The notes beneath the pieces are model-generated. The model did not search any database, had not been told where the DNA came from, and worked only from the letters and a program-made list of their open reading frames with translations. This document shows, piece after piece, positions 25,217 to 63,810 of a stretch of DNA of 64,000 nucleotides. This stretch comes from Nitrosopumilaceae archaeon. GTDB taxonomy: Archaea > Thermoproteota > Nitrososphaeria > Nitrososphaerales > Nitrosopumilaceae. Where the stretch lies: the NCBI GenBank assembly GCA_965203465.1, contig CBDBCR010000003.1:32001-96000 (forward strand), read 5' to 3'. Numbering within the stretch: the stretch's first letter is position 1; each line of letters starts with the position of its first letter. A program made the translations under genes and the position numbers.

Positions 25217-25845
25217 GGAATACGAGGACAACAGGAAGACGCTCAAGCGCCAGTTTTGGAGATCCGGCGCCTACTCAGGAAAAAGCGCGCAGGTTTTGCG
25301 AGCAGACCGGCGAAAAACTAGATGTGGTCAGGGAAAAAATAAAGACGGATGATCTGTTCAGATGGTTCTTTCTCAAAGATCCCATCAGGCAGAACGTGCA
25401 CGAACTGTATGCGGCCGCCTTCATAGAGAGCATAAACGCCGTGACCAACTTTAAAAAACTCGGATCCGACGAAATGTTTGTCATCAGCGGCGGCGTCGTA
25501 AAAAAATCAGACTTGGGCACCATGAAGCCCAAGAGCAAAAGCATCGACTTTTACTGGGAATGCGGCAGCAAGAAATTCTACGCCTTTCACAAATACGCCA
25601 AAGACTCAGGCGGGCATCAAGACAACCAATACCGAGATCTTCAAGTTTTCATCGGAGAGGCAAACACGTCGGGGATCAAGGACTCGTATTTTCTGGCCAT
25701 TGCCGACGGGGATTACTACAGCACAAATAACGGCAGGGCCCGAACGACAAAGATCGAACGGCTGAAGCAGATCGCCAACGGCAAGAACGTGTTCGCCATG
25801 ACCAGCGACGAACTGCCCAAATTCCTAGACGGCCTGGACTGCTAG
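25203..25845 (+). pseudogene. Putative restriction endonuclease, apparent +1 frameshift at TTTT 25254-25257
   Basis: TTG at 25203 overlaps the MTase end (MPTPEEYEDNRKTLKRQF); the +1 frame continues GDPAPTQEKARRFC.. 'KSIDF', 'HKYAKDSGGHQDNQ' (PD-(D/E)xK-like); the GTG ORF 25324-25845 is intact. Confidence 0.55.
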
Positions 25846-25997
25846 CGGCCAGACGACGGCACGGCTGGACAGAGCACGGCAGCGTCCACGCGCTGGTTCA
25901 AATCTTGCAGGATGCCGGCGGATCGGATGCGGCCGGCAGAACGCGGTCCGCGCGGAGCTCGGGCCGGGCGCTGGTGCACCCGGGGCGGCCCGGACTC

Positions 25998-34900: not shown

Positions 34901-37900
34901 CCGACGCGTCGACTAGCTCGCTGAATGTGACTTCTATCGTGGTAAGCGAGGTGGCTTTGGCGGATTCTATCGTAGGCCTTACCGCGTCCGAGACATCGAT
35001 GTCGGTGGCAGAAGCGAGCTCGTTCGCGGTCCCCGCCGCCTCGTCCGCCACGTCGCCTGCCGAGGAGTCGTAGGCCAGCTTTACGCCCTCCGGCTTTGTG
35101 TCCGTCAGGTTGCCGTCGAGGGTCAGCACAAGCGTGTCCGAGGCGGTCGACGAAATGCCAGCGCGCGTGTTCACGAGGCGCGAGTTGGAGTCGCCGCCCG
35201 ATATCGACCAGCCGGCGGCGCCGGACGTCCCGGTGGCCTTTACGGGCTCGCTGAACGTCACCTCTATCGTGGTAAGCGAGGTGGCCCTAGCCGATTCTAC
35301 GGTCGGCTTTACGCCGTCCGAGACGTCGATGTTCGAGGCCGATGCGAGCTCGTTTGCGGTCCCCGCCTCGTCTGCCACGTCGCCTGCCGCGGAGTCGTAG
35401 GCCAGCTTTACGCCCTCGGGCTTCGTATCCAAAAGGCCTCCGTTGAGGGTCAGCACCAGCGTGTCCGAGGCGGTGGCGGATATGTCCGAGCGTCTGTCCA
35501 CTACGCGCGAGTTCCAGTCGCCGCCGGATATCGACCAGCCGGCGGCGCCGGAGGTCCCGGTCGCCTTTACGGTCTCGCTGAACGTGACCTCTATCGTGGT
35601 AAGCGAGGTGGCCCTAGCCGATTCTACCGTCGGCCTTACCGCGTCCGAGACGTCGATGTTGGACGCGTCGTCCATCGAATTGGCCGCCGCTGCGGTGTCC
35701 TGAACGGTGCCGTCCGCCGCCACGTACGCCAGCTTTACGCCCTCCGGCTTTGTATCCGAGAGGCCGCCGTCGAGGGTCAGCACCAGCGTGTCCGATGCGG
35801 TCGACGAAATGCCAGAGCGCGTGTCCACCAGGCGCGAGTTGGAGTCGCCGCCCGATATCGACCATCCGGCGGCGCCGGCGGTCCCGGTCGCCTTTACGTC
35901 CTCGCTGAACGTGACCTCTATCGTGGTAAGCGAAGTCGCCCTAGCCGACGTTATGGTCGGCTTTTGCCCGTCCGCCAGATTCTGCGAGACGGTCGCCGAG
36001 CCCAGCGCGTTGCCCGACGCGTCGGCCACGGCAGCCGCGTCTATCGAGACGGAGCCGGTGGCGCCGGTGCCGACGGGGCTCGCCGTAGAGAACGTGACCG
36101 TGTGCCTGTCCGTCGAACCGTTGGCCAGGCCCGAGACGGTGGCGGCGGCTCCGTCCACGGTGGCCGACACGTAGTCGGCCTGCGCGGCCGTGACCGCCTC
36201 GCCGTACGCGACTTCTATCGTGGTCGGGCCGACTATGCTGGCCGACTCTATCTCGGGCGCGATGCCGTCGGCCACGTCTACAGAGGCGTCGGCCAGCACC
36301 CTAGAGTCCGTGCCCGATATCGTCACGGTCGTGCCCTGGCTCGGCGCGGCGTCGAACGAAAGCACGACGCTGTCCGGCTTTGTGTCCGGCAGGCCGGAGC
36401 TCAGATCCAGCCTGAGAGTGCTCGTCAGCGAGGACAGCGAGGACGCGCCCGATATGCTCAAAGCTGTGGGGCTGGCCGCGTCGCCTCCAGATATGGACCA
36501 GGCCGAGAGCAGATCCGACGGGGAGGCGGAGCTCGACACGCCCCTTGTGAACTCGACCACTATTGTGTCGCGGTTGACGGCGGTCGCAGACAGGATGGAC
36601 GGCCTCCTGTCGTCCTGCACGGCCGTCGCCGAAACTGCCGCCAAAGCCAGATTTGAGCCGTCCTGTATCGTGCCGGCAGCCGAGTACGCCAGTCTCAAGT
36701 CGGTGGACGGGACCGGCACGTTTCCGCTCAAAGATATAGTCATGGAGCCGGTCGACGAGGTGAGCGACGAGACCGACGATACGGCCAGGCCGGCCGCGTC
36801 GGCGCCCGAGATCGTCCAGTGCGACGCGTCGTTGTCCGAGCTGGAGACGGGCTCGCTGAACGATACGGTGATTGCGTCGTCGGCGGTCAGCCTGAACTCG
36901 GCGGTAGGGGCGATGCCGTCCGATACCGGTATGCCTTGGCGGGCGGCCAGGGCGTTGGAGTCCGGATCTTCGATGGCCCCCGAGCCCGAGCCCGGATCGC
37001 CGGCCGCGTCGGTGCCCGACGTCTCGTATCTTAGCAGCACGCCGTCCGGCTTCGTATCCGCCAAGGCTTTGTCGAGCGTCAGCACTATGGAGTCGGAACC
37101 GGACGAAGTGGTGCTCGAGACCACGACGTGCGAGCCCGCGTCGGTCCCCGATACGGACCAGCCCTGCGCGGCGGCATCCAGTATCGTGAGCGGCTCGCTG
37201 AAGGTGACCCTGATCTCGGTGAGCGAGACGGCTGCGGCCGACGATATCGTCGGCGCGACGCCGTCCGATACCGGTATGCTCTGGCGGGCCTCGAGGGCGT
37301 TGGAGGGGGGCGCGGCCGGGAACGTAAGGTACTGCGAGACGGAGCTGCGCTGGACGGTGCCGCCGGGGCCGGTAAAGGAGGTGGTCGAAGACGCCTTGTC
37401 GGCGATGTCGCCCGAGCCCGAGCCGGCATCGGCGCCCACGTCCGTACCCGATGTCTCGTAGCGCAGATGTATGTCCGGCTTGGTATCGGACAGCGGTCCC
37501 GAGAGCGTCAGCGTGACGGTGTTTCCGTCAAGAGAAGTGCTCGAATCGACGGTGCGCGAGGCCGAATCTGCCCCCGATATAGACCACCCCTTGCCGGCAA
37601 GATCCGATGTGGACACGTCCTCGTCGAACGTCACCTGTATGGTGTCGGCCGACGTGGCCTTGGCCGCCGTTATCGACGGGGCCACGCCGTCGTCTAGCGG
37701 CAGGAACTGCCTCGAGGAAGAAAGCGCGTTTCCGGCAAGATCCCGCACGCCGTTGGGGTCGTACTGCACGAAGCCGGACCACGACGGGTTCACGGTGCAG
37801 TCGCGCGACGTGAACGTGAACCTGTCGGCGGCCGTGAGAGTGGTGCCGCCGGCGCAGTTGGCCTGGCCGTTGAGTCGCGCGTCATGTATGGCGAAATTGC

Positions 37901-40900
37901 CGATGCGGACGTCCTCGCTGAACACGGAGACGGCCTTGTTGGGTGCCTCTGTCCTGGCATAGACGGTCGGCGCGATGCCGTCCGATACCGGTATGCCCGC
38001 GCGCGCCTCCATGGCGTTGGACGACGAATCCGCTACGGCGCCCGAGCCCGAGCCCGCATCGGAGCCGACATCGGCGCCCGAAGTCTCGTAGCGCAGCACC
38101 GCGTTGTCCGGGTTGGTGTCCGCGAGGTTCCCCGAGAGCGTCAACACGACCGAGTTGGAGCCGGACGCGGCGCTGCTCGCGTCCACCGTCAGGCCCGCCG
38201 CGTCGGTCCCCGATACGGACCACCCTTGCGCGCTCGTGTCCTGTACCGTGAGGCTTTCGCTGAACGTGACAGTTATGCTGTCGCGGGCCGTGGCCTTTGC
38301 CGTCACGGTGGGGGGCAGGCCGTCCGATATCGGTATGGAAGAGCGCGGCGCCAGCGCGTTGGACGCCAAGTCCGTTATGGCCCCCGAGCCCGAACCCACG
38401 TCGCTGCCCACGTCGCCGGTCGCGGTCTTGTAGCGCAGCACCGCGTTGTCCGGGTTGGTGTCCGCGAGGTTCCCCGAGAGCGTCAACACTATGGAGCTGT
38501 TGACGGACGTGGCCGTGCTGGTATCGACCGTGAGGCCGGCAGCGTCGGTGCCCGATATCGACCACCCTTGCGCGCTCGTGTCCAGTACAGTGAGGTCTTC
38601 GCTGAACGTGACCGTTATCTGGTTGGGTGCCGTGGCCTCGGCCGTCACGGTCGGGCTTATGCCGTCGCCGGCGGCCGTGGGCGGATAGTCAGCGAGCGGG
38701 CGGTTGGAATTGTCCCTGATGCCGTCGCCCGAGTACGCCACGGTGATGGCCGGTTTCGTGGTATCGGCGATGTCCCTGTCCAGGGTCAGCACGGCCGTGC
38801 TCGACCTGCTCTCGAGGCCCGCGTTGAGCATGGGGATGCCCGCGATCGACTCCACGGAGGCGCCGCCCGCGTCGGCGCCCGATATCGTCCAGCCGAACGG
38901 CGCGGCGCCGGACAGCTGCGCCGGGTCCGAGAACGTCACGGTTATCGTCCTGCGCGAGGTGACCGTCGCCGAGTCGACGGTGAGCAGGTCCGATACGGGT
39001 TTGTCGAGGGACTCGGCTATCTGGACGCCGGTCGTGTCCGAGACGGCGCCCGCGGATATGTCCAGCTCCGGGTCCGAGAGCGTCTCGAACGCGGCGCGCT
39101 GCTGGGCGACTAGCGTGAATTTCACAGAGAACCCGTCGGGCTGGCCCGCGTCCAGCCTGCTGGTCAGTTTTATGCCGCCCGACGACGAGCCGCTCTCCCG
39201 TATGTCGAATTTCGAGGCGTCGACCGACGATATCGCGACGGTCTCGCTGAACACCACGGTCAGCACCCCGTCGGAGCCGTGGTAGGAGGCCGACGCGAAG
39301 ACGGGCGCGATCGAATCCGCCGTAACGGCGACGTCGTGGCCGGCAGAGTCGGGGGCGAACGGGTTGCCGCTCGTGTCGTACACAGTGTTGGGCGCGAAGT
39401 ACAGGTTGGGATCGGACATGCCGATCACGGCCTGGCGCGAGGCCTCGTCCAGACTGAACCGCAGGGTGGACGTGTTCGACGAGACGGCCAGCATGGAATC
39501 GGTCATGGTAAGCTGGCCGGCCGCCGGCTGGCTCGTGCCGTCGCGCACGTGCACGCTCGTGGCAGAGAGCCTGCCCACGTCGATGTACTCGTTGAACGCT
39601 ACGGCCAGCCGGCCTGTCCCCGCGTCGAAGGTCACGTCGGCCGGCGCAGATATGATCGGCGCCGCGGAGTCGGCCGTGACGGCGATGTCGACGCCGGAGG
39701 CCGGCACGGAGAGGTCTCCGTCCGCGTCGCGGAACGCGCCCGCAGAGACGTACAGCCTGGGATCGGCCATGGCCAGGACGAGCTGCCTCCGGTCCTCGTC
39801 GAGCTCGAATGCCGGCGAGGCCGTGTCCGACGTCTCGGACGTGGAATCCTGATCCAGGACGAACGCGCCGGCAGACCCGGGCGTCGCCGAGGGGCCGTCG
39901 CGTACGCCTATGAGCGTCTCGTCGATGTCGCCGGGCGCCGACGCCTTGGCGGTCTTGCTGAGGGTTATCTCCAGATCGCCGAGACCCCCGTCCACCGTAG
40001 AAGACAGCACGTACAGCGTCAGGCCTACCGCGTTGTCGGCCGAGGCATCCGACGGGATGCCGGCCTTGTCCGAGACGGCTCCCGCGTCGATGTCAAGTTC
40101 CGGGACGGACAGGGCCTCAAAGTCGGCGCGCTGTTGCGCGGTAAGCGTGAACTTTACAGAGACGCCGTCGGGCTGGCCCGCGTCCAGCCTGCCGGCGAGA
40201 TTTATGCCGCCCGACGACGAGCCGCTCTCCCGTATGTCGAATTTCGAGGCGTCGACCGACGATATCGCGACTGTCTCGCTGAACACCGCGGTCAGCCTGC
40301 CGTCCGAGCCGTCGTACAGGACGGATTCGAACGCGGGCGCGATCGAATCCGCCGTCACGGCGACGTCGTGGCCGGCAGAGTCGGGGGCGAACGGGTTGCC
40401 GCTCGTGTCGTACACAGTGTTGGGCGCGAAGTACAGGTTGGGATCGGACATCCCGATCACGGCCTGGCGCGATTCCTCGTCCAGACTGAACCGCAGGGTG
40501 GACGTGTTCGACGAGACGGCCAGCATGGAATCGGTCATGGTAAGCTGGCCGGTCGCCGGCTGGCTCGTGCCGTCGCGCACGTGCACGCTCGTGGCAGAGA
40601 GCCTGCCCACGTCGATGTACTCGTTGAACGCTACGGCCAGCCGGCCTGTCCCCGCGTCGAAGGTCACGTCGGCCGGCGCAGATATGATCGGCGCCGCGGA
40701 GTCGGCCGTGACGGCGATGTCGACGCCGGAGGCCGGCACGGAGAGGTCGCCGTCCGCGTCGCGGAACGCGCCCGCAGAGACGTACAGCCTGGGATCGGCC
40801 ATGGCCAGGACGAGCTGCCTCCGGTCCTCGTCGAGCTCGAATGCCGGCGAGGCCGTGTCCGACGTCTCGGACGTGGAATCCTGATCCAGTACGAACGCGC

Positions 40901-43900
40901 CCGGCGCCGATGGCGAGGCGGACGGGCCGTCGCGTACGCCTATGAGCGTCTCGTCGATGTCGCCGGGCGCCGAGATCTTTGCCGCCCTGTTGAGGTTTAT
41001 CGTGAGGCCTCCAGACTCCCCGTCGAACGAGGCGGAGTCTACCCCGAGCAGAGCGGCGACGCGGCTGTCCTGGGAAGCCGGTATCGCGTTGGCCGGCGAG
41101 GCCGTGTCCGAGACGGCGCCCGCGTCGATGTCCAGCTCTGGCACCGACAGGGCCAGGACGGTCGCCAGCTGCTGCGCGGTAAGCGTGAACGCGACCGAAG
41201 CCCCGTCGGACTGGCCTGCGTCGAGCCGACCTGTAAGCGCGGTGCCGCCCGACGAGGAGCCGCTCTCCCGGATGTGGAACTTTGAGGCGTCCGCCGAAGA
41301 CACGTCGACGTCCTCGCTGAACTCCAGCGCAAGCTCGCCGCTGCTCTCGTTGAGCACGGCCGACAGCAGCGCGGGCGGCAGGAGGTCCGAGACGGACACG
41401 TGCGGCGAGACGGTCGATGCGAGCGGCTTGTCGGTGCCGTCCTTTATGTCGCCCGGGCTCTGCACGTACTGCAGCCGCAGCGAGGGCGAGGTGTCCGGCA
41501 GGTCGCCGGAGAGGCCCAGGCTTACCGTGTCGGTCGACGACGATATTCCGAGGTACCTGCTCACGGTTATGCCGGCAGAGTCGGCGCCGTGCAGCTTCCA
41601 CGTGCCGGCCGCGCCCGTCGCGGTGCCGGTGACGTCCTCGCTGAACTCGACCCGGATTTCGTCCGCCGAGACGGCGGCGGCCGACGATATGGCAGGCGCC
41701 AGGTTCTGCGAGACCGAAACGCTCGCGCCGGCAAGGCCGTTGTCGGACGCGTCGGCTATGTCCCCCGCCGAGCCCGAGTACGACAGGGTCACCTCGCCGA
41801 TGGGCTCCGCGAACGCCGACGAGGCGGTGATTTCTATGGAGCGCGAGTCGGAGAACGCGTCGTAGACCGTTATCGTGCGGCCGCCCGCGCCTGCCCCCGA
41901 GAGCGACCACGTGTCGTCCGGATCCGTCGCGGTGCCCGAGACTTCTTCGGAGAACTCGACGGTTATCTTGTTGGATTCGTGCGAGACCGCCGAGGCGATG
42001 GCGGGCGCTATGCCGTCCGAGACGGGGGCCGAGGCCGCCGCCATGGCGTTGGAGGACGGGTCGGATACGGCGCCCGAGCCCGAGCCCGGATCGCCGCCCT
42101 CGTCTCCCGCCGATGTCTTGTACCGGAGCGAGGCCTCGGGCCTCGTGCCCTCCAGATTCCCTGAGAGGGTCAGCACGATAGAGCCGCCGTCCGACGCGGC
42201 GGTGCTCGCGTCCACCGTGAGGCCGGCAGCGTCGGTGCCGGATATAGACCAGCCCTGCGCGCTCGTGTCCAGTATGGTGAGGTCTTCGCTGAACGTGACC
42301 GTTATCTTGTCGGGGGCCGTGGCCCTGGCCGCAAAGGTCGGGGATATGCCGTCGGACGGGGCGTCAGAGTACGCGGCAAGGGCGTTGTCGTATATGTCCT
42401 CGATGTTGCCGCCGCTGTAGGCCACCGCAATGTCGGGGGACGTGTCCGCCAAGTTGCCGCTCAGCAAAAGCCTGGCCGTAGTTCCCGACTGGGTGCTGGA
42501 AATGTCCGTTATCGAGGATACGGACACCGAGGCGGCGTCGGTTCCGGATATCGTCCAGCCTGTCGGCGCGCCCGTGTCGGACATGCGGACCGCTTCCGAA
42601 AATCCGACCGTGATCTCGTCCAGCTTTGTGGCCTCGGCGGAGACGATGCGGGGCGCGATGCCGTCCGATACGGGTATGGAAGCCCGGCTGGCCAGAGGGC
42701 TGGAGACAGCCGCGTCGGGGAACGTGAGGTACTGCGCGACGGAGCTGCGCTGCTTGGGGCGGTCCTGCGCTTCGGGGAACGCGGCTCGGGAGGAGGACTT
42801 GTCTGCAATGTCGCCCGAGCCCGAGCCCGTATCGGCGCCGATGTCGGCGCCGGACGTCTCGTAGCGCAGCTGGATGTCGGGCGTGGTGTCCGGCAGCGGG
42901 CCCGAGAGCGTCAGGGTCACGGTGCGCCCGTCCAGGGACGTGCTGGAGTCGACTGTGCGCGAGGCAGAATCGGTCCCCGATATCGACCACCCCTTGCCCG
43001 CCGTGTCCGAAGTGGACACGTCCTCGTCGAACGTTACCTGTACGGTAGTCAGGGACGTTGCCGTGACCCCCGTTATCGACGGGGCCACGCCGTCGTCGAT
43101 GGGCATGTACACCCAAGCGCCCGGCCTGTTTCCCGCAAGATCGCTGACGTTGCGCCCGTCGTACAAAAACGAGCCCGACGACGAAGAGCTTATGTTGCAT
43201 CTGGACGTGAACGTGACAGAGTTCTGGCCCGCAAGCGCGGAGGTGGAGCCGGTTGCGCAGCCGGGGCTGAGGCGGAAAGTCTGTATGGTAAAGGAGCCGC
43301 TGACGCTGACGGCTTCGCTGAACCTGTACGCGACCTTGTTGGGGAGGACCGTCGTCGCAGAGATCGTCGGCGCTATGCCGTCCGATACGGGTATGCCTGC
43401 GCGCGCCGCCATCGCGTTGGATGCCGGATCCGCTATGGCCCCCGAGCCCGAGCCCGCGTCGGTGCCGATGTCCGTACCCGAAGTCTCGTAGCGCAATACG
43501 GCGTTGTCGGGGTTGGTGTCCGCCAAGTTCCCCGAGAGCGTCAGTACTACGGAGTTGGAGCCGGACGCGGCGCTGCTCGCGTCCACCGTCAGGCCCGCCG
43601 CGTCGGTGCCCGACACGGACCAGCCCTGCGCGGTGGTGTCCTGTATCGTGAGCGGCTCGCTGAACGTGACGGCTATCCTGTTTAGGGCCGTGGCCCGCGC
43701 CGTGACGGTCGGCTTTATGCCGTCCGCGACGTCGCCCGACAGGTCTTCCAGTTCCTTGCCGCCGTCGCTGGCGATCGTCACGGCCGAGCCGTCGTACGCC
43801 AGGATCACGCCGTCGGGCTTTGTGTCCGGCAGGTCCGAGCTGAGCGTGATCGTCAGGGAACTGGTGAGCACCTGCAGCGACGTCATGCTTTGTACGCTCA

Positions 43901-46900
43901 AGCTCGCGGGGCTGGCCGCGTCGCCCCCCGAGACGCTCCAGGCGGCGAGCAGGTCGGCCGGAGAATCCGGGCTCTTTACGGGGCTCGTGAACTTTACGGC
44001 TATCTTGTCGAGCTCGGTGGCCCGTATCGAGGCGACGGCCGGGCGCCTCTCCTCCGATACGTCCGCCGACGAGGCCGGCAGGGCGTTGCCGGACGCGTCC
44101 GAGACGGCCGAGCCTGAATAGCCGACGCTCAGGCCCGATATGTCCTGGGGCATGTCGCGGTCCAGCCCTATAGCCATCGAGTCGGTCAGCGACGATAGCG
44201 ACGTGACCGACAGCGAGCGGGGTACCGAGAACGAGCCGTCGGCGTGCGAGAACGCCCAGTGCCCGGCCAGGTTGCCCGAGCCGCTCACCTGCTCGCCAAA
44301 GTCTATGATCACCGTCCGGTCTTCCGTGATCCTCGCCTCGAACGAGGGGGCCAAGCCGTCCGATATCGGTATGGAAGAGCGCGCCGCTAGGGCGTTGGAC
44401 GCCAAGTCCGCTATGGCCCCAGAGCCCGAGCCCGTGTCGCCGGGCACGTCTCCTGCGGAAGTCTTGTAGCGCAGCACCGCGTTGTCCGGGTCCGTATCCG
44501 CAAGGTTCCCCGAGAGCGTCAATACTATGGAGCTGTTTGCGGACGTGGCCGTGCTGGTATCGACCGCCAGGCCGTCGGCGTCGGTGCCCGATATAGACCA
44601 CCCTTGCGCGCTCGTGTCCTGCACCGTGAGCGGTTCGCTGAACGTCACCGTTATCCGGTTCAGTGCCGTGGCCTCGGCCGTGACGGTCGGGGCTATGCCG
44701 TCCGAGACGTCGATGTTGGTGGCAGAAGCGAGCTCGTTTGCGGTGCCCGCCTCGTCTGCCACGTCGCCTGCCGAGGAGTCGTAGGCCAGCTTTACGCCGT
44801 CCGGCTTCGTATCCAAGAGGCCGCCGTCGAGGGTCAGCACAAGCGTCGTCGAGCTGCCGGCAGAGATGTCCGAGCGCGTGTCCACCACGCGCGAATTCCA
44901 GTCGCCGCCCGATATCGACCAGCCGCCCGTCCCGGCGGTGCCGGTGGCCGTGACCGCCTCGCTGAAGGTGACGGTTATCTCGTCGAGGGCGGTGGCCCTC
45001 GCCGATTCTATCGTAGGCTTTACGCCGTCCGAGACGTCGATGTCCGTGGCCGAGGCGAGCTCGTTGGCGCTCGACGCGGTGTCTTGCACGTCGCCCGTCG
45101 AGGAATCGTACGCCAGCTTTACGCCCTCCGGCTTGGTGTCTAGCAGACCGCCGTTCAGTCTCAACACCAGCGTGTCCGAGGCGGTGGCCGATATGTCCGA
45201 GCGCGTGTCCACCACGCGCGAGTTGGAGTCGCCGCCCGATATCGACCAGCCTCCCGTCCCGGCGGTGCCGGTGGCCGTGACCGCCTCGCTGAAGGTGATG
45301 GTTATCTCGTTGAGGGCGGTGGCCACAACCGATTCTATCGTCGGCTTTACGCCGTCCGAGACGTCGATGTCCGTGGCCGAGGCGAGCTCGTTGGCGCTCG
45401 ACGCGGTGTCTTGCACGTCGCCCGTCGAGGAATCGTACGCCAGCTTTACGCCCTCCGGCTTGGTGTCTAGCAGACCGCCGTTCAGTCTCAACACCAGCGT
45501 GTCCGAGGCGGTGGCCGATATGTCCGAGCGCGTGTCCACCACGCGCGAGTTGGAGTCGCCGCCCGATATCGACCAGCCTCCCGTCCCGGCGGTGCCGGTG
45601 GCCTTTACGTCCTCACTGAACGTGACTGTTATCTCGTTGATGGCGGTGGCCTCTGCCGATATTATGGTCGGCTTTTGCCCGTCTGCCAGATTCTGCGAGA
45701 CGGTCGCCGTCCCCAGGGCGTTGCCCGACGCGTCGGTCACGGCCGCCCCGTCTATCGACATGGTGCCGGTAGCGCCGGTGCCGACAGGGCTCGCCGGCGA
45801 AAACTGGATCGTGTGCCTGTCCGTCGAACCGTTGGCCAGGCCCGAGACGGTGGCGGCGGCTCCGTCCACGGTGGCCGACAGGTAGTCGGCCTGCGCGGCC
45901 GTGACCTCCTCGCCGTACGCGACTTCTATCGTGGTCGGGCCGACTATGCGGGCCGACTCTACTTCCGGAGCTATGCCGTCCGATACGTCGACCGAGGCGT
46001 CGGCCAGCACCCGGGATTCGGCGTCCGATATGGACACGGTGGTGCCCTGGCTCGGCGTGGCGTCGAACGAAAGCACGACGCCGTCCGGCTTTGTGTCCGG
46101 CAGGCCGGAGCTGAGCGTGAACGTGAGCGTGCTGGTGCGGACGGCAAGCGACGAGACGGTTTGTACGCTCAAGCTCGCCGGGCTGGCCGCGTCGCCGCCC
46201 GATATGGACCAGGCCGAGAGGATGTCCGAGGCGCTGTCCGTGCTCGTGACGCCCCTCGTCAACTCGACAACGACGGTGTCGCGGTCGACGGCCGTGGCCG
46301 ACAGGATCGACGGCCTCCGGTCGTCCTGCACGGCCGTCGCCGGCGCGGCCGCCAGGACGAGGTTGGCGCCGTCGCTTATCGTGCCGCCGGCCGAGTACGC
46401 CAGTTTCAGATCCGTCGACGGGACGGGCACGTTTCCGTTCAGCGCGACGGTCATGGAGCCGGACGACGAGGCCAAGGACGATACGGACGATACGGCCAGG
46501 CCGGCCGCGTCGGCCCCGGACAGAGTCCAGTGCGACGCGGCGTTGTCCGGGCTGGACACGCCCTCGCTGAACGTCACCGTTATGGCGTTGTCGGCGGTCA
46601 GCCTGAACTCGGCGGTCGGCGGCAGGCCGTCGGACACCGGTATGCCCTGGCGCGCGGCAAGCGCGTTGGACGAAAGGTCGGTTATCGCGCCCGAGCCCGA
46701 ATTGGGGTCGCTCCCCACGTCGCCGCCCTCCGTCTTGTAGCGCAGCACCGCGTTGTCCGGGTCGGTGTCGGCGAGGTTGCCCGATAGCGTCAGCACTATC
46801 GAACTGTTTACGGACGTGGCCGTGCTCGCATCGACGGTGAGGCCGTCGGCGTCTGTGCCGGATATGGACCACCCCTGAGCGGTCGTGTCCGATATGGTCA

Positions 46901-49900
46901 GCGGCTCGCTGAACGTGACCGTTATCTTGTTCAGAGCCGTGGCCTCGGCGGTGACCGTCGGCGCTATGCCGTCCGATATGGGTATGTTTTGGCGCGCCTC
47001 CATCAGGTTGAGCGACGGGTCGGCTATGGAGCCCCCGCCCGAGCCCGGATCGCCGGCCAAGTCGATGCTCTCGGTCCTGTACCGGAGCACGGCGTTGTCC
47101 GGGTTGGTGTCCTCTAGGTTCCCCGAGAGGGTCAGCACGATAGAGTCCGAGTCTGCCGCCTGCGTGCTCGCATCGACGGTCAGGCCGTCCGCGTCGGTGC
47201 CCGATATAGACCAGCCCCGCGCGCTCTGATCCGTTATCGTGAGGTCTTCGCTGAACGTCACCGTTATCTGGTTGGGTGCCGTGGCCTCGGCCGTGACGGT
47301 GGGCTTTATGCCGTCGCCGGCGGCCGTCGCCGCGTACGTCGCAAGGTCGTTGCCCGACGTGTCCTCGATGTTGCCGCCCGAGTAGGCCACCGTTATGGAC
47401 GGCCGGGTGGTGTCGGCGATGTCCCCGTCCAGGTTCAGCGTGGCGCCCGTGCCGGATGCGGATTCGGTTATGCCCGATATCGAATCTACCGCAACGCCGC
47501 CCGCGTCGGTCCCCGATACGGCCCAGCCGAACGGGGCGGTGCCGGCCTCTGAGAGCCCCACCTCCTCGGAAAAGGCCACCTCGATCGTGCGGCGGTCGGT
47601 CACCTTTGTCGACTGAACCTCGGGGGCCTGCCCGTCGCCCAGAGTCCGCTGCAGCGCGCCGGCGCCCAGCGCGTTGCCGGACGCGTCGAGCACCCCCGCG
47701 GCGCCGATCGACAAAGAGCCCGTAGCGCCGGTGCCGGCCTCGTGGCCCGTGAACGAGAGCACGTGCGAGGCGCTCGTCTCGCCCGATATCGCGGACACCG
47801 CGCGCGGGGCCCCCTCCACCAGGACGGAGCCGTAGTCGGACAGCGCCGCGGTCACGGCCTCGCCGTACGAGACGGTTATCTGGTTGGGGCCGGTGACCCG
47901 CGAGGACGAGACCTGCGGCGCGAGGCCGTCCGATACCGGTATGGAAGAGCGCGCGGCAAGCGCGTTGGACGAGAGGTCGGTTATCGCGCCCGAGCCCGAA
48001 TTGGGGTCGCTGCCCACGTCGCCGCCCTCCGTCTTGTAGCGCAGCACCGCGTTGTCCGGGTCGGTGTCGGCGAGGTTGCCGGAGAGCGTCAGCACTATCG
48101 AACTGTTTACGGACGTGGCCGTGCTCGCATCGACGGTCAGGCCGTCCGCGTCGGTGCCGGATATGGACCACCCCTGAGCGGTCGTGTCCGATATGGTGAG
48201 GTCTTCGCTGAACGTGACCGTTATCTTGTTCAGAGCCGTGGCCTCGGCCGTCACGATCGGCGCGATGCCGTCGCCGGCCGCCGTGGCCGCGTAGGCCGCC
48301 AGATCGATGCCCGCCGTGTCCTCGATGTTGCCCCCAGAGTAGGCCACCGTTATGGACGGCCGGGTGGTGTCGGCGATGTCCCCGTCCAAGTTCAGCGTGG
48401 CGCCCGTGCCGGTTGCGGATTCCGTTATGTTGGATATGGAACTGACCTCGGCGCCGTCCGCGTCGGTACCCGATATCGTCCAGCCGAACGGCGCGGCGCC
48501 CGGACCCGACAGCCGGACCGGCTCGGAGAACAGCACCCAGACCGAGTTGCGCGAGGTCGCCGTGGCGGACAGCACGGCCGGGGCCGCGCCGTCCGATACG
48601 GGTATGTTTTGGCGCGCGGCCAGCGCGTTGGAGGCCGAATCGGCTATGGCCCCAGAGCCCGAGCCGGAGTCCGATCCGACGTCGGCCCCCGACGTCTCGT
48701 ACCTGAGCAGCACGCCGTCCGGCTTTGTGTCCGCCATGTTACCAGAGAGGGTCAGCACTATGGAACGGGCGCTGGCCGCGGCGGTGCTCGCGTCCACCGT
48801 CAGGCCGGAGGCGTCCGTGCCGGATACGGACCACCCTTGCGCGGTGGTGTCCGAGACGGTCAGCGGCTCGCTGAAGGTGACCCGTATCTTGTCCTGGGCC
48901 GTGGCCACGGCCGACGATATCGTCGGCGCCAGGTTCTCGGTGACGGCCACCGAAGAGCCTGCAAGGTCGATGTCGGCTGCGTCCTTTACGTCGCCCGCAG
49001 AGGCGTCGTACGACAGCGCCACCTCGCCTATCGGCACCGAAAAGGCCGGCGAGACGGTCAGCACGACCGAGCCGGAATCCGAGAGAGCCGGATAGCCCGT
49101 GATCGCGCGGCTGCCGGCGCCGGCCCCCGAGAGCGTCCAGGTGGAGCCGGGCGCCGTGGCCGTGCCAGATACGGGCTCGGAGAACGTGACTGTTATCTTG
49201 TCGGTCCCGTTGGACTCTGCGAGCAGTATAGCGGGGGCGATGCCGTCCGAGACGGAGGCGGACTGGCTCTGCATGGGGTTGTCCAGGGCGGTCGGATACG
49301 TCAGGGCCTGCGCTAGGCCGCCGCGATCGTTGTACTCGCCAAAGAATCTATCAACGTGCGTGAACAAAGACGCCCTGTCCCGGATGTCGCCGCCGCCCGA
49401 GCCGGCGTCGGCCCCCACATCGATCCCCGACGTCTCGTAGCGAATCTGCAGGCCGTCCGGCTTCGTGTCGGGCAGCGGGCCCGAGAGCCCCAGTGTGACC
49501 CGGTTTCCGTCGAGCCGCGTGCTGGAATCCACGGTGCGCGAGGCCGAATCCGTCCCGGATATCGACCACCCCTTGCCGTCAGTGTCTGAGGTGGTCACGC
49601 GCTCGTCAAAAGTCACCTGCACCGTGGTAAGGGACGTGGCCCTGACGCCGGATATCGACGGCGCTATGCCGTCGTCTATGGGCATGTTGCGTCGCGATCG
49701 TTCAGAAAACATCGTGTGTCCTGCCGGATCAGTTGCCCAATTCACGGGGACGCGGTGCGTTCCTGTCCACGAAGAGCCAAAAGAGCTGCAAGTCGATGTA
49801 ACCTCGATCGTGTCAGAGGTTTGGCCAAGGCCCGGTGTACGGCCGCTGGCTGCACCGCAACCTCCGGGAAAATCGATTATTGAATCGTGTGCAGAACGCG

Positions 49901-52900
49901 TCACAGGCTCGCTGAACTTGAACTCGATTATGTTCGGCGCTTTCGTCTTTGCTGAAAGCGTGGGCCTGATGCCGTCCTGTATTGGTATATTCTCGCGCGC
50001 GGCCAGCGCGTTGGAGTCCGAGTCCGCGATGGCGCCCGAGCCCGAGTCCGCGTCGCCGCCCACGTCCCCCGCCAAAACCTTGTAGCGCAGCACCGCGTTG
50101 TCCGGGTTGGTGTCGGCCAGGTTGCCCGAAAGCGTCAGCGTGACCCGGTTTCCGTTGAGCGCCGAGCTCCGGTCAACCGTGAGGCCGTCGGCGTCGGCGC
50201 CCGATACGGACCACCCTTGCGCGTTTGTCCCCGGCGCAGAGACGCGCTCGCTGAACGTGACCGTTATCGTGTTCAGGGAGGTGGCCCGCGCCGAAGAGAC
50301 GGTCGGCGCCAGATTCTGCGACACCGGGGCCGAGCCTGAAAGCGCCAGGCCGGCAGGATCGGCTATGTCGCCGGCAGAGTACGAGAGGGCCACCTGGCCG
50401 ATGGGCGAAGGGAACGCCGACGAGACTGTCAGGACTGTCTGGTCGGACCGCGAGGGCGCCTCGTAGGCTGTGACGGTGCGGCCGCCGGCGCCGGCCCCCG
50501 AAAGCGTCCAAGTGGAGCCGGGCGCCGTGGCGGTCCCCGAGACCGGCTCCGAAAAGGTCACGGTTATCTGGTCTGCTGCGCGCGAGACGGCCGACGATAC
50601 GGACGGCGCGATGCGGTCCGAGACGCGCGCGGACTGGTCGGCCATGGCCATGCCGTTGGCGTCGGCCAGCCTCACCGGCTGAAAGCCGGAAGGCGTGGAA
50701 TCGTAGTGAACCACGACGCCGTCCGGCGCCGTGTCCGGAAGGTCGGAGCTGAGCGTGAGGGTGAGCGTGCTGGTAAGGACCGTCAGCGACGACAGCCGGA
50801 GCACCGAATTGCCGGCCGCGTCGCCGCCCGAGACGCTCCACGCGCCGAGCAGGTCGGCCGGCGGGCTGGAGCTCTGTGCGGGCTGCGAGAGGGACACCAC
50901 GACGGTGTCCGGGGCAACGGCCGCTGCCGACGATATCTCCGGGGCCCGGTAGTCCGAGGCGGGCGCCGAGGCGGCGGCCAAGCGGTTGCCGGACGCGTCC
51001 GAGACGGTGCCGACCCCCAGATAGACTACGCTCAGGCCGGAGGCGTCCAGCGGAAGGGCCATGTTGAGATCGACGGTCATGGAGCCGGTCAGAGAGGCCA
51101 GCGACGAGGCCGACAGGGGGCCGAGCGCCTGGAACTGCCCGCCGGCGTGCGAAAACTCCCAGTGCAGGAAAGAGTTGTCCGAGCTTTGCACCGGCTCGCT
51201 GAACACGACGGTCACCTGCCTGTCTGCGGTGATCCTGGCCTCGAAGGCCGGCGCTACGCCGTCCGATACGGGTATGCTTTGGCGCGCGGCCAGCGCGTTG
51301 GACGACGAGTCCGTCACGGCCCCCGAGCCCGAGCCCGCGTCGGTACCCACGTCGGTCCCCGACGTCTCGTACCTGAGCAGCACGCCGTCGGGCCCCGTGT
51401 CCGCCAGGTCCCCCGAGAGCGTCAAGACCACCGTCGTCGAGCCCGACGAGATGTCAGAGCTGGCCGCGACGTGGCGCGAGGCCGAATCGGTCCCCGATAT
51501 GGACCATCCCAGCCCTGTTTGATCGGCAGTCTTTACGGTCTCGCTGAACGTCACCGTTATCCTGTCCAGGGCGGTGGCCTCGGCCGACAGTATCGCAGGC
51601 GCGGCCCCGTCGGTGCCGACGACCACGGCCACGCCGCCGGTCTCTGCCGCTATGGCGTTGGCGGTCGGCGATATCACGTCCGAGATGGCGCCGGCGGCCA
51701 CGTACAGGTGCGGGCCGGTCATGGCCAGAACCGCCTGGCGGTTGGCCTCTGAGAGCCGGAACTTTAGCGTCAGCCCGTCGGACTGGCCCGCCTGCACCTC
51801 GGCTGCGGACAGCGAGACCTCGCCGGCCGAGCCGTCGGCTGCCCCCGAGCCGGGCCGTATCTCGAATCCGGCGCCGTCCGCGCCGGACACGTCGACGGTC
51901 TCGTCGAACGTGACCGTGAGGACGCCGGTGCCCCCGTCCAGGGAGGCAGATTCCACCTCGGGCTTTACGGCGTCCGGCGTGTCGGCTATCTCGGTGGCCG
52001 AAGAGGCGGGGGCGTTGTTGTTCGAAGAATCCTTCGTGACGCCGGCCTCGAGGCGCACGTGCGGCTCGGCGTACCCGATGACCGACTGCCTGAGGGCCTC
52101 GGTCAGTTTTATCCTGATCTGCGCGTCGGCCAGCACGACGGCGGTGACCGCCGAGCCGCTCAGCGCGGTGCCGCCGGCGCCGTCGCCGTCGCGCACGAAG
52201 ATCTTGGCCAGATCAACGGACGCGCCGTCGCCCACGTGCTCGTCGAAGTTGAGGTTGAGCACGCCGGTCCCCTCGTCGACGGACGCCGAGACCAGTACCG
52301 GGCCCGTGGTGTCGGCCGCGGGCCTGGGCGCGGACTTGGTCACGGTCGCCAGCGCCGCGTCGGTGCCCGACGCCTTGAAGGCGTTGGCGGCTATCACCAC
52401 TTCCGAGTCGGCGGTTATATCCTTCATGGATTCCTTTTGCGCCGGGCTCAGCCCTATGTCCTTCATGGATTCCTTTTGCGCCGGGCTCAGCCCTATGGTG
52501 GCCACCGCGCCGCTGATCGAAAGCGAGGACGTCGAGTCGAGCGTCGTCCCTCCGGATTTGCCTTCCTCCCGCACGGTTATCTTCCCGAGCGCGTCGGCGC
52601 TGCTGGTGTGCGCCTCGATGTTCTGGTCGAACGTGAGGGTCAGCTTGCCCGCGTGCCGGCTGCCGCCCTGCTCGAAGTTGTTCAGGTCGATTGCAGCCGA
52701 GTCGAGCACGGGCAGCAGGACCAGCCGGGCCGAGGCGTCGGTGTTTGTGTTGAACGCGGCGTCGGCCACGGCGCCCTCTTCGAGGTGGATGTACGGGTCC
52801 GCGTAGCTGTTTACATCGTCTAGCGCGCTATTGTCGAGCACTATCGTGACGGTGCTAAGGTTGTCGGCCGAGGTGAGTTGCGAGCTGGTCAACATCGTGC

Positions 52901-53171: not shown

Positions 53172-53208
53172 GCGTGGATCTGGCGCACGGCCGGCCGGCC
53201 GCCTTCAA

Positions 53209-53275
53209 TTATATAAACTACGAAAATTCCTACCACTGTCGATAGTCCCGAAATTCGTCCACCCCCCCCCCCCCC
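53209..53275 (-). promoter_or_regulatory. TATA box of the giant gene with an upstream G14 tract
   Basis: TTTATATAA on the minus strand (53209-53217); C14 on the plus strand at 53262-53275. Confidence 0.7.
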
Positions 53276-53411
53276 AAGAGGCCGGACGCCAGCGCGCAGG
53301 GGCGCCTGCCTGCGCGGAAGAGGGCCGCCGCTGGCACGGATCGGGCGCCACCGGATTTGCACGGGCGTTCGGCCCCGGCCCGCCCCATATAGGTTGGCCC
53401 CCCGGGATCGG

Positions 53412-55834: not shown

Positions 55835-58450
55835 CTAGGCTCTGCGCGACAGGCGCCTGTAGGCGAATACGGCGGCGGCCGGCGAGCCCACAAGAGAGGC
55901 GTTGAACAGTATAACGAGCGAGCCGAGCAGCACAGTCTGGGCCTCCGATTCCGCCAGTTCCATTATTCCCAGAGACCAGAGCAGAGGCTGCAGGGATGCC
56001 TGGACTGCCTGCTTGAAGGCCGGGCTGGACCTTTCCAGGTCGGCGACGGCCGGCGAAAAGGCATAGTAGAACTGGTTGAAACCTGACATGAATACAGAGC
56101 CTGCGCCCGTCGAGAGGGCGCCGTCGCGGACTTCGCGCAGCCGCTGCACCTGCTCTGACATCTCGGTGCCGTACGCGGCCGTGGCTACCAGGCAGCCGCC
56201 TCCGTCGTCTGCCGGAACGGGCGTGCAGGTCCCGTCGTCGGCGAGGAACGTGCCGGGGCCGCAGACCGGATCTGCCGGCTCTGGCTCGTCGGTGATCGGC
56301 TCTTGGGTGACAGGTTCCTGCGTGATCGGAGCTGGCGGCTCGGGTGCCGGCGGCTCGGGGTCTTTGGGCGGCTCTACTACGGGCGCTGCCGGCTCTGCGG
56401 GCGGCTCGGGCTGCTCGACGGGTTCGGCGCGCTCGGCCTGCCGCTGCTCGGGCTCTACCTCGAAGGGCTGGGAAGTCGCCCTCGGCTCTGGCGTATCGAA
56501 CGTCCTGGTCCCCGTGCACGAATCGATGTTTACGGATTCGGTGTCCGACGCGATGGTGCGGTTGGAGACGAGCGTGGCCGAGATCCTGGCGAAAGATTCC
56601 GAAGATCCGAACGGAGCGGTGAATTCGGTGTACCCGTCAGAGTCGCCCGACGGCGTCATGCGGATCACGCCGGCCACGGGCATGCGGACGGTCACGTCGA
56701 GCGAGCCCGACGACGGGCCGGCCACCACGTCGATCGTGTTGGCCTCGCAGTCCCACGAGACGGATCGTATGTACACCGCGTCTGTCACGGCGCCCCCGTC
56801 CAGCGTGGTTCCCGAGACGCGGGCGCCGCCGCCCCCTCCTCCTCCGCCGCCGCCTCCGCCTCCGGCGGAAGTCCTCTGCGGCGGGGCCGTGACGTCGAGG
56901 GTGGCGCGCTCGGGCGCGGCCGGGGCAGGTGCCGGCGCGGTCTGGGTGGTGTACGAGGTCTGCCACCTGCCGTCTATGAACCTGAGCGTCTCGTAGGCCG
57001 CAGAGGCCAAGTCGCCCTTGGCGTCGAGCTGCGTGCTGCCCATCAGCCCGCGGTGCCCGAGGGCCGCGGACGGTATGGCGTTGCCCAAGCCGCCGTCGCC
57101 CGTCACCGCGGTCGAATCGGAGAGCACCAAGGCCTTGCCCAATACCTGCACGGAATCGTAGGCGGCGTACGCTCCCGAATAGACGCGCGTTTCCCGTTCG
57201 GTGATGTCGAGCCTGTCCTGTATCGCGTTGGTCACCCTCGGGAACGAGTCGTGGCTTCTGTCGGGCGCGTCGTCGATCACGGTGAATTGGTCCCTGACGA
57301 ACGACAGCACCTGGGCGGACGCGCCGTCGGTGACGGGCCAGAACTGCGCCCCGTACCAGTTCAGCGCCGCAAGCGCTGGATCCGCGGCGGCGGCCTCGAC
57401 GATGAGGGCGCCGTCGTCCCGGAACGGGGCGAGCAGCACTACGGTATTGCCCGAGACCGCGCTGGCCACGTCGGCCGTGACCGGCGTGCCGCTGCCCAGC
57501 GATATTATGGCTGCCGGATCGTATGCCACCGGCGCCACGGTTATGCCCGAGGCGCTGCGCCGCACCGACTCCAGCAGGGATGTGCCCCACGGGTCGCTGT
57601 CCCGGTGGACCACCACTACCGTCTGCACGCCCTGCCCGGCCAGCCTGTCTGTGAAGAACTTGCCCTGGTTGGCCGTGGGCGAGAGGAACCGGAATATGTT
57701 GTCTTCCAGCGCGAGGGCAGACGAGACCGAGCAGCAGCTCAAGAGCAGCATGCCGTTGTCGTCGGCGTATTGGCGCACGCTTGCAAGCTCTGTAGAGCTG
57801 ACCGGGCCGAACACGATTTTGGTGCCCAGCATGTTCATGCCCTGGAGTTCGGAAAGGGCCGTCGCCGGCAGCGACGCGGTGTCGCGCGCGTCCAGCTGGA
57901 GCCGCCATTTCGAGTCCGTGCTCACGAACCTCGCGTTCAGATCCTCCACCCCCTCGCGTAGCGCGGCCTCTGCCGGCTCCCCGTACTCTGCGAGGCCGCC
58001 GGTCCGCGCCACCAGCGCGCCGACCCGGACCGTCGTGGGATCCGCCGGCACTGCCGGGGCCCCGACCACCTGTATGCTGAACTCACGGAACACGCCGGCC
58101 TGCCCCGCCGCCGTCGGCATCGCGTACAGCATCGGGCTGTACGCAGTGCCGACTTGGGCAGTTGCCGGCACCGTCACGGTCATCTCCATGTCCAGCGTGC
58201 CGCCGGCCGGAATCTGCGCGCGCGGGGGCGACAGCTGCGTCGTCAGGCCGTCGGCGCCCCTCACCGTAAACTCCACGCCGGTCGCGGCGTCCGACGTGAG
58301 GCGCAGCACCAGTATGCGCGAATCGCCGGCCTCCATCTCGACGCCGAGGCCGGACGAATAGACCGGATCGTACGCCAGGCCGAACGCCTGCGGCGCGGCA
58401 GCCGCCGCGGCGAGCGCCAAGAGCGTCGCGGTCAGCAGCGTGCGGGACAT
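55835..58450 (-). CDS. Surface protein: Ig-like N-domain + type I periplasmic-binding (Leu/Ile/Val-like) domain + Gly/Pro linkers + CFI-box-CTERM anchor
   Basis: Signal peptide; 'VRVGALVARTG', 'GPVSS', 'YAAYDSV', 'GDLASAAY'; 'GGGCLVATAAYGTEM..QVQRLREVRD..FNQFYY.FSP', TM segment and basic tail. Confidence 0.9.
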   Translation of the reverse strand: MSRTLLTATLLALAAAAAAPQAFGLAYDPVYSSGLGVEMEAGDSRILVLRLTSDAATGVEFTVRGADGLTTQLSPPRAQIPAGGTLDMEMTVTVPATAQVGTAYSPMLYAMPTAAGQAGVFREFSIQVVGAPAVPADPTTVRVGALVARTGGLAEYGEPAEAALREGVEDLNARFVSTDSKWRLQLDARDTASLPATALSELQGMNMLGTKIVFGPVSSTELASVRQYADDNGMLLLSCCSVSSALALEDNIFRFLSPTANQGKFFTDRLAGQGVQTVVVVHRDSDPWGTSLLESVRRSASGITVAPVAYDPAAIISLGSGTPVTADVASAVSGNTVVLLAPFRDDGALIVEAAAADPALAALNWYGAQFWPVTDGASAQVLSFVRDQFTVIDDAPDRSHDSFPRVTNAIQDRLDITERETRVYSGAYAAYDSVQVLGKALVLSDSTAVTGDGGLGNAIPSAALGHRGLMGSTQLDAKGDLASAAYETLRFIDGRWQTSYTTQTAPAPAPAAPERATLDVTAPPQRTSAGGGGGGGGGGGGGARVSGTTLDGGAVTDAVYIRSVSWDCEANTIDVVAGPSSGSLDVTVRMPVAGVIRMTPSGDSDGYTEFTAPFGSSESFARISATLVSNRTIASDTESVNIDSCTGTRTFDTPEPRATSQPFEVEPEQRQAERAEPVEQPEPPAEPAAPVVEPPKDPEPPAPEPPAPITQEPVTQEPITDEPEPADPVCGPGTFLADDGTCTPVPADDGGGCLVATAAYGTEMSEQVQRLREVRDGALSTGAGSVFMSGFNQFYYAFSPAVADLERSSPAFKQAVQASLQPLLWSLGIMELAESEAQTVLLGSLVILFNASLVGSPAAAVFAYRRLSRRA

Positions 58451-58451
58451 T

Positions 58452-60656: not shown

Positions 60657-60685
60657 GGGTTGCTTCGTCCGGGCCTCGCCAAGTG

Positions 60686-60742
60686 TGTATAAAAGGACTT
60701 CGTTTTTGGGCGGTTTTGCCAGAACCCCCCCCCCCCCCCCCC
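60686..60742 (-). promoter_or_regulatory. TATA box with an upstream G18 tract
   Basis: TTTTATACA on the minus strand (60686-60694); C18 on the plus strand at 60725-60742. Confidence 0.7.
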
Positions 60743-61232
60743 GAGGGGCCGATTTCGCGGTCCGGCGGCAAGAGCGCGGGTCTGGTACGGCCCGGATTGG
60801 CGGCGCGCCGGGCGGCGCCGGCGGGCTCGCGCGGCCGGGCGGCGCGGGCCGCCCCGTACCGGACGCGCCGGAAAGCACGTTCGAGCTCGGGTCGATGTGT
60901 TCGCGACCCGGTGGCGGCAAGGCACCTGCCGGAAACGCTCAAACGCTGGTCGATGTATTCTCCAGGACGGCCGCTCCCCCGGATCGCGCGGCCGAGCTGG
61001 CCGGGGACAGCGGTCTTGCGCGCGTTCCCGTCCCGGCAGGAAAGGCCGGACGCGGCGCCGCAAAATCCTGCCGGCATTCTTGCGCGCGACGCTGCCGCGC
61101 ACCGTCTCGGCGGGCGCCGCGCCGTGAGGCGCGCCGAGCGCGCGGCCGAACGACTGGAAGAGCCCGCGCTTTTGGCACTATGGCGCGGATCGCCTGCGGG
61201 CCGGCGCAGCCCCGCCCCGAACCGCGCCCGTG

Positions 61233-63806: not shown

Positions 63807-63810
63807 TTTG

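Follow-up and report, generated by a model that had tools for sequence, protein, structure and literature searches.

How did three domains, each carrying a cysteine (Cys) pair and scattered along one giant archaeal gene, come to share a frame and differ inside it, and are they exchanged like cassettes? The question is raised by a stretch of 64,000 nucleotides from a Nitrosopumilaceae archaeon (assembly GCA_965203465.1, contig CBDBCR010000003.1, positions 32,001 to 96,000), referred to below as the window. A single open reading frame (ORF), located at 25998-53171 on the minus strand, encodes there a protein of 9,057 amino acids (aa) that holds all three domains, here called modules 1 to 3. An earlier note on this DNA had described them as antibody-like variable units embedded in homogenised repeats and had proposed that they are interchangeable ligand-binding cassettes of an antigenic-variation system. 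This interpretation was partly supported: it was right in spirit, the modules being fast-diverging and probably recognition-related, and wrong in mechanism. The account favoured here, with moderate confidence, is that of a lineage-restricted immunoglobulin (Ig)-like domain whose variable loop is stapled by a disulfide and which, together with a conserved partner domain, probably forms the recognition unit of a giant adhesin and has diversified by ordinary means.

The Cys-pair modules and their partner domains

The three modules were found within a few bases of the places where they had been reported. Module 1 spans residues 1066-1166 (window 49674-49976, minus strand) with Cys 1105 and 1128, module 2 residues 3264-3359 (43095-43382, minus) with Cys 3305 and 3325, and module 3 residues 5064-5160 (37692-37982, minus) with Cys 5106 and 5125. 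Each is directly followed by a partner domain of 142-143 residues encoded on the same strand, at residues 1167-1308 (49248-49673), 3360-3502 (42666-43094) and 5161-5302 (37266-37691), respectively. The partner domain consists of an ordinary 105-residue repeat and an insert of about 35 aa, located approximately at residues 1264-1301 (49269-49382, ending in AQALTYP), 3456-3494 (42690-42806, ending in AQYLTFP) and 5258-5291 (37299-37400, ending in SQYLTFP). The alignment of the partner domains holds about 60 invariant core columns and, in the insert, the invariant motif R-x4-Q-x-L-T-x-P. A conserved following domain with an insert ending in (A/Y)LT(Y/F)P had therefore been correctly recognised. 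The supposed hypervariability of the insert did not hold, since in units 1 and 2 the insert hardly differs from strain to strain and is thus specific to the paralogue.

The unit made of module and partner occurs three times in the window protein and once in a paralogue of 7,440 aa encoded on another contig. The whole genome was scanned in six frames (27,688 pieces of at least 40 aa) with a hidden Markov model (HMM) of the module, and exactly four modules were recovered, all in frame and scoring 127-142 bits, three in the window gene and the fourth in its paralogue. The partner domain follows the module in all four genome copies and in all 11 module sequences from six proteins, and both Cys are kept in 11 of these 11 sequences. 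In the alignment of the four modules, 18 columns including both Cys are invariant and the interior differs. The kept frame is thus real, although the complete difference claimed for the interior was an overstatement since copies 2 and 3 are still 46-47% identical.

The window protein has 13 Cys in total: one in the hydrophobic N-terminus, six in the module pairs and six in the C-terminal region (8676-8863). The modules therefore carry the only Cys of the stalk, as had been read from the sequence. By alignment, their positions follow the 'GWSISG' and 'LTLSG' strands of the ordinary repeat, i.e. the first Cys would lie behind strand C and the second behind strand E, and the two invariant residues are most likely disulfide-bonded, closing a loop or hairpin of 18-23 residues. 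In an AlphaFold2 model, unit 2 folds into two beta-sandwiches with a predicted local distance difference test (pLDDT) score of 82 and a predicted template modelling score of 0.78, the underlying alignment comprising 56 rows that all come from domain pairs of the organism's own genome. Module 2 corresponds to model residues 1-96; the pLDDT is 62-69 in its inter-Cys stretch, 88-96 in the partner sandwich and below 50 in the insert, except for a short helix at residues 215-220 (SVAQYL). Foldseek returned only generic tandem Ig/FN3 structures, with weak scores (best E 5e-4, template modelling scores 0.2-0.4); 7dm0 (the Bap C region) and 2ra1 (the S-layer protein SbsC) are among the better matches. 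A thioester link between a module Cys and the conserved Gln of the insert was considered and dropped, the fold being Ig-like and the motifs of thioester domains being absent. Potential N-glycosylation sequons, looked for by eye in the loops, show no consistency between copies.

No Pfam family matches any of the four modules at E <= 0.01, whereas the adjacent domains match Big_5 at 4e-5 and 1.5e-4. The modules do match the HMM built from the repeats of their own protein (52-58 bits) and are thus divergent relatives of Big_5 rather than curated members. In the ESM Atlas, the clusters nearest to module 2 are Big_5/SWM clusters (score 0.95). Among 1,005 Big_5-like domains, 17, belonging to 6 of 143 unrelated proteins, have a Cys at both of these fold positions. 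Such pairs occur in P0041, P0059, P0117 and P0136, among which P0059 has them in eight tandem stalk domains. These unrelated domains reach 15-21 bits against the module profile, compared to 71-142 bits for true modules, and no partner domain accompanies them. Such a staple is thus a variant that recurs in this fold and not an antibody-like invention, and the antibody-like label is weakened by its presence in ordinary tandem Big_5 domains.

The module proper is a lineage-restricted domain. Its profile found no match in the genomes of 40 relatives (E <= 1e-8), nor, at E <= 1e-7 and with up to 12 candidates scored in each genome, in 400 more genomes from 27 genera of the family. A word-index search among proteins of 178-2000 aa gave five hits at E <= 1e-10 out of 7,999 scored, all at 83 bits or less and none of them a true module, and a scan of Joint Genome Institute metagenomes with the two-domain alignment yielded 154 pattern matches of which none was confirmed. 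Among the 157 matches (E <= 1e-3) obtained with HMMER over 1.84 billion representative proteins, true modules were present only in the species' own two clusters. No description of these modules was found in the literature searched, supplements of sponge-archaeon papers aside.

Divergence between copies and between strains

The modules are the most diverged and fastest-diverging class of internal domains of the protein. Paralogous copies of the modules have an identity of 0.34-0.46, compared to 0.64-0.75 between partners and 0.66-0.85 between the domains that precede the modules, and among 67 internal domains only the three modules have a best match within the protein below 0.5 (0.41, 0.46 and 0.46). 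The surrounding repeats are not homogenised, contrary to what had been proposed: the DNA identity of the domains flanking the three units is no more than 68-85% and their synonymous divergence (dS) is 0.45-0.87; their likeness is maintained by purifying selection rather than by recent conversion. Between units 2 and 3, dS amounts to 0.45 in the preceding domain, 0.66 in the module and 0.63 in the partner. The corresponding nonsynonymous divergence (dN) is 0.09, 0.43 and 0.18, which gives a dN/dS ratio of 0.65 for the module versus 0.21 and 0.29 for its neighbours. The similar dS across the three domains indicates that the unit was duplicated as a whole and that the module then took 2-5 times more amino-acid change. 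For unit 1 compared to the other units, synonymous sites are saturated in the module (dS 1.6-2.6).

Related giant proteins were compared to the window protein (P0001): its orthologues P0002 and P0003, which are collinear or mosaic, the 7,440-aa paralogue (P0006) and the orthologues of the latter, P0005 and P0007. Between P0001 and P0002, the median identity over 61 domain pairs is 0.92, and modules 1, 2 and 3 stand at 0.80, 0.87 and 0.93. Change is concentrated between the two Cys. In module 1, 12 of 23 inter-Cys positions are changed versus 8 of 77 outside; the counts are 7/21 versus 6/75 in module 2, 1/18 versus 6/77 in module 3 and 5/20 versus 6/76 in module 4, that of the paralogue. Pooled over the four modules this makes 25/82 versus 26/305 (Fisher p 1.6e-6), in a test that was framed post hoc on two to three alleles per module. 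The excess is seen in three of the four modules and is accompanied by insertions or deletions (indels) in modules 1 and 2. Over 49 orthologous pairs of ordinary domains, 10.7% of positions are changed in the corresponding region versus 11.7% elsewhere, and in a ranking of 52 domains module 1 comes first and module 2 fourth. Sliding identity falls to 0.68-0.70 over the loop of module 1 and to 0.75-0.85 over the domain preceding module 2 together with the first half of that module; module 3 shows no such trough.

Allelic replacement, which interchangeable cassettes would entail, was looked for at module 1 with contigs from four runs of four different studies aligned on window 47700-53300. In each run, one contig spans the module and both of its borders: 1,418 bp without difference in X9, which is possibly the source sample, 551 bp with 13 differences in X1, 1,022 bp with 44 differences in X3 and 438 bp with 56 differences in X11. 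The same module 1 thus occupies the same site in all four studies, 0-12.8% different, at the resolution of contigs rather than raw reads, which hides rare variants and could let low-frequency switching escape. In X11, an adjoining piece of 921 bp over the partner domain is 9.8% different and the remaining pieces of the run differ by 0.1-3%. In one strain, module 1 and its partner therefore lie within about 1.3 kb of divergent sequence.

Larger blocks differ as well between alleles. Seven domains of P0001 (aa 2181-2937) have no counterpart in P0002 and the block at aa 3929-4730 differs in copy number, although these differences rest on metagenome assemblies of repeats and may be differences of assembly. 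The seven-domain block (window 44361-46631) is itself a diverged duplicate of aa 5418-6176, 77-88% identical where comparable. A recent tandem duplication is visible at about window 39318-40931 (aa 4081-4618), where aa 4157-4274 and 4501-4618 are 98% identical and aa 4081-4156 are 95% identical to the matching part of aa 4391-4500; this block is the least conserved between P0001 and P0002 (0.61-0.78) and is present in more copies in P0002. P0003 is a mosaic. Its residues 1196-1980, including module 2, resemble the window gene (88-100% identity to P0002), its residues 3233-4206 resemble the paralogue (91-98%), and it also carries a module-3-like copy sharing only 58% identity with module 3. This arrangement may have arisen by recombination of blocks among the giant paralogues, or it may be a chimera of assembly.

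The composition of module 1 and the origin of the variation

Copy 1 had been noted as visibly AT-richer, and its G+C content at third codon positions (GC3) bears this out: 0.574 compared to a mean of 0.864 (standard deviation 0.046) over 76 domains, i.e. z = -6.3. Modules 2, 3 and 4 have normal values (0.82, 0.86 and 0.90). The maximum-likelihood low-GC3 segment of the ORF (log-likelihood ratio 31, binomial P 6e-13) covers aa 1061-1160 (window 49692-49991, minus strand) with a GC3 of 0.54 versus 0.866 for the ORF, and is co-extensive with module 1; all 30-codon windows of the ORF with a GC3 below 0.6 fall inside it. Since the limits of the island are those of the domain, it fits a past whole-domain replacement by recombination through conserved linkers, and suggests that module 1 was imported from a lower-GC relative with junctions in these linkers. 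Exchange through conserved flanks had been proposed, and in this limited form the proposal is supported; the cassette system built upon it is not. Other large ORFs of the genome contain low-GC3 islands too (40-codon GC3 of 0.33-0.50; C3:509290-519678(-) aa 187-290, C3:948233-953428(-) aa 257-329 and C3:943198-948126(-) aa 220-422), so patchy foreign composition is not unique to module 1.

In the favoured account, the predicted disulfide would keep the frame of the module rigid and leave the enclosed loop free to change. Module and partner together would form a putative site of recognition or binding whose specificity differs from copy to copy, the copies being displayed along a long adhesin. 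Substitutions and small indels would accumulate in the loop, and homologous recombination would move whole domains or multi-domain blocks among alleles and giant paralogues, module 1 having been brought in from a relative of lower GC content. Machinery dedicated to switching would play no part.

Several points weigh against this account. Its anatomy, copy number, divergence pattern, loop hotspot and GC3 island are observed, as is the lack of donors and of a reverse transcriptase, but the disulfide, the surface exposure, the binding of a ligand and selection as the cause of divergence are inferred. By whole-domain identity between alleles, the modules rank only 10th, 15th and 33rd lowest of 61 and are not outliers. 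The loop of module 3 has a single change between the two strains, the inserts of units 1 and 2 hardly vary, three ordinary domains (aa 637, 5520 and 3150) show 41-48% change in the equivalent region, and a single recombination tract could have clustered the changes on which the loop test relies. The mosaic P0003 may be a chimera, and a donor of module 1 was found neither in the genomes of relatives, nor in the 400 family genomes, nor in the representative proteins searched. The description of the modules as variable units is borne out by their divergence and by the loop being the hotspot between strains, but the dN/dS ratio lends it no help: between paralogous modules, it is 0.26-0.65 for the whole domain and 0.5-0.9 for its sub-parts, never exceeding 1. 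With dN/dS below 1 everywhere it was measured, the divergence is accounted for equally well by relaxed constraint and by diversifying selection.

Relaxed constraint is precisely what a spacer role would imply, the modules being ordinary stalk domains devoid of a binding role in which a disulfide lets the loop drift neutrally. The dN/dS ratios, the Cys pairs at the same position in unrelated Big_5-like proteins, the quiet loop of module 3 and the local clustering of changes in some ordinary domains are all consistent with it. A mere spacer is nevertheless not expected to be paired with the same conserved partner in every copy, to keep its frame and both Cys invariant next to neighbours of much lower dN at similar dS, to gather indels in the loop of two of the four modules, or to be maintained as a unit in two giant paralogues, and this alternative is judged possible though not probable. 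Diversifying selection on the loops in a sponge host, with modules traded between co-resident archaea through the inter-domain linkers, would go further than the favoured account and is considered unlikely. It could be driven, for example, by binding to the matrix or to cells, by evasion of host recognition or by escape from viruses using the protein as a receptor. It would amount to a community-level variable-receptor system driven by recombination, comparable to VARTIG (see below) but repeated within a giant adhesin.

Mechanisms relying on dedicated donors fare worse. In programmed antigenic variation of the pilE/pilS or vlsE type, silent cassettes would replace the expressed modules by gene conversion through the flanks, for which the conserved frame with its variable interior, the island of module 1 ending at domain borders and the suggestion of recombination between giant paralogues in P0003 could be invoked. 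No silent donor cassette was however detected in the six-frame scan of the 96.9% complete genome, in which the next match scores 33 bits and lacks the Cys, and a blastn search of the organism's own genome (word size 7) revealed no partial or second DNA copy or template repeat of any module. The flanks, at 68-85% DNA identity, are not homogenised, and contigs of four studies bridge the same module 1 and its flanks. Programmed antigenic variation is thus largely refuted for this assembly and regarded as very improbable. Diversity-generating retroelements (DGRs), which would rewrite the loops from a template repeat by means of an error-prone reverse transcriptase, are hardly conceivable here. DGRs can target Ig-like or C-type-lectin folds, whose hypervariability is then localised, as is the variability of the module loops. 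On the other hand, the genome searched contains no DNA repeat of any module that resembles a template, no match to the reverse transcriptase profile RVT_1 (PF00078) was obtained in it at E <= 0.01 whereas 3 of 14 control genomes have one, and the observed variation includes indels, which are atypical of DGRs. In the absence of silent copies and of reverse transcriptase, neither silent cassettes nor a DGR are there. Cassette antigenic variation (Neisseria pilE/pilS, Borrelia vlsE) and DGRs share with the present modules a conserved frame with a local variable interior in a surface protein, and differ from them by their silent cassettes, reverse transcriptase or template repeat. It would also be far-fetched to see in module 1 a chimeric insertion from another organism of the metagenome. 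The abrupt change in GC3 is all that points to such an artefact; in each of the four runs, from as many studies, one contig reads through both borders, and P0002, from an independent assembly, carries this module at the corresponding place, so module 1 is not an assembly artefact.

The giant protein, its host genome and comparable systems

The window protein starts with a hydrophobic, signal-peptide-like N-terminus visible in the translation, from which it may be taken as secreted or cell-surface. About 76 Ig-like domains of 95-120 aa follow (76 matches to an HMM derived from these repeats themselves), and the protein ends in some 550 non-repeat residues, its C-terminal region. When the two halves of the ORF were submitted to Pfam, they matched Big_5 (PF13205; E 4e-68 and 6e-40) and SWM_repeat (PF13753; 9e-16). 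The tandem Ig-like array is thus recognised by curated profiles, which places the protein in the Big_5/SWM class of giant or fibrillar adhesins. The proposal of a giant adhesin is plausible; that of an antigenic-variation system is not supported, given among other things the lack of donors and the same module 1 on contigs of four studies. The C-terminal region (aa 8505-9057, window 26001-27659, minus strand) contains six Cys and has only a weak Pfam match to DUF6481. Giant proteins of other Nitrosopumilaceae have this region as well: there are 19 related loci at 32-55% identity, nearly all in metagenome-assembled genomes (MAGs) of Nitrosopumilaceae or Thaumarchaeota. The region is a possible cell-attachment part. 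It was also encountered on two short contigs, L021 and L024 (5.4 kb and 2.8 kb), of MAGs labelled as Gammaproteobacteria and Nanoarchaeota; binning contamination is most likely the cause, rather than transfer.

The closest described system, by analogy, appears to be that of the VARTIG modules of Thermococcales, whose pattern is shared but whose layout is not. According to part of its description (Makarova et al. 2021, PMC8416519), archaeal large multi-Ig proteins contain there too one two-Cys Ig domain that is far more variable than the others, a likeness of pattern and not a comparison of homology, and the variability is likewise ascribed to recombination between strains or species without a dedicated enzyme. 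The same part places the variable Ig domain C-terminally, next to a sorting signal, with small downstream genes that encode matching Ig domains as recombination partners in a layout resembling that of polymorphic toxins (PMC8416519). In the present protein, by contrast, the variable domains are internal, three per protein and each with a conserved partner, and cassette-like genes are missing: of the downstream ORFs, 24278-25216 matches no family, 23053-23631 (minus strand) encodes a PIN domain, and neither encodes a matching Ig domain.

Fibrillar and giant Ig-repeat adhesins, including Periscope proteins (Bap, SiiE, MpIBP, SasG/Aap), offer a second comparison, drawn from portions of two papers (PMC8201768, PMC9210967). 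They have the same long tandem Ig-like stalk, a number of repeats varying between strains as would be the case for the seven-domain block of P0001 absent from P0002, and non-stalk modules presumed to be the binders, as is proposed for the units described here. They are however bacterial, usually carry their adhesive domains at the tip and often have stalk repeats of nearly the same DNA sequence, whereas the candidate binding units lie interspersed along an archaeal stalk whose repeats are mostly well diverged.

The genome (2.26 Mb in four contigs, 65% GC, 96.9% complete) is rich in giant genes, with 15 ORFs of at least 2,300 codons and a coding-like GC3 that together make about 180 kb. The runs holding the stretch come from four studies and are labelled as sponge or marine metagenomes. 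Most sponge-associated Thaumarchaeota have a GC content of 47-67% compared to 32-34% for free-living ones, as given in a section of a published comparison (PMC7848895). The composition and these runs taken together indicate that the organism is most likely a sponge-associated ammonia-oxidising archaeon. The units bear on how such archaea recognise and hold their host. Published sponge-archaeon comparisons list Ig-like and 'eukaryote-like' surface domains, in passages that name no candidate binding sites (PMC6790972, PMC7848895). The present finding supplies small testable pieces, namely 240-residue two-domain units with a predicted disulfide-framed variable loop, and the 300-bp GC3 island is a concrete case of inferred domain-level import into a giant gene. 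If the loops are selected recognition sites, this would be the second case after VARTIG of archaeal surface receptors diversified by recombination alone. If they are not, the modules would clearly illustrate how, within a repeat protein, a disulfide staple allows a domain to drift faster than those around it.

Another Cys-bounded loop is present in the paralogue P0006 (G000:C1, ORF 648397-670716, plus strand), after 'LSY' in the first Ig-like domain (aa ~90-125). The loop comprises 8-20 aa and differs in length and sequence among the close orthologues P0005, P0006 and P0007 and the distant P0008 and P0010; its site shows a mild GC3 dip (0.60) and the domain is presumably distal. On the reading in which diversifying selection acts on the loops, this N-terminal loop would repeat the design of the modules.

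The window encodes, downstream of the giant gene, a DDE transposase (15498-16619, plus strand) and a protein with a ParB-N domain (22232-22972, minus strand), in addition to the PIN-domain protein mentioned above. The GC content of positions 23000-26000 (0.56-0.61) is below that of the surroundings, and this segment may be a mobile or island-like border. Upstream are located two Peripla_BP_6/ANF_receptor proteins of about 870 aa (55835-58468 and 61233-63827, both on the minus strand) and a beta-helix protein (58452-60920).

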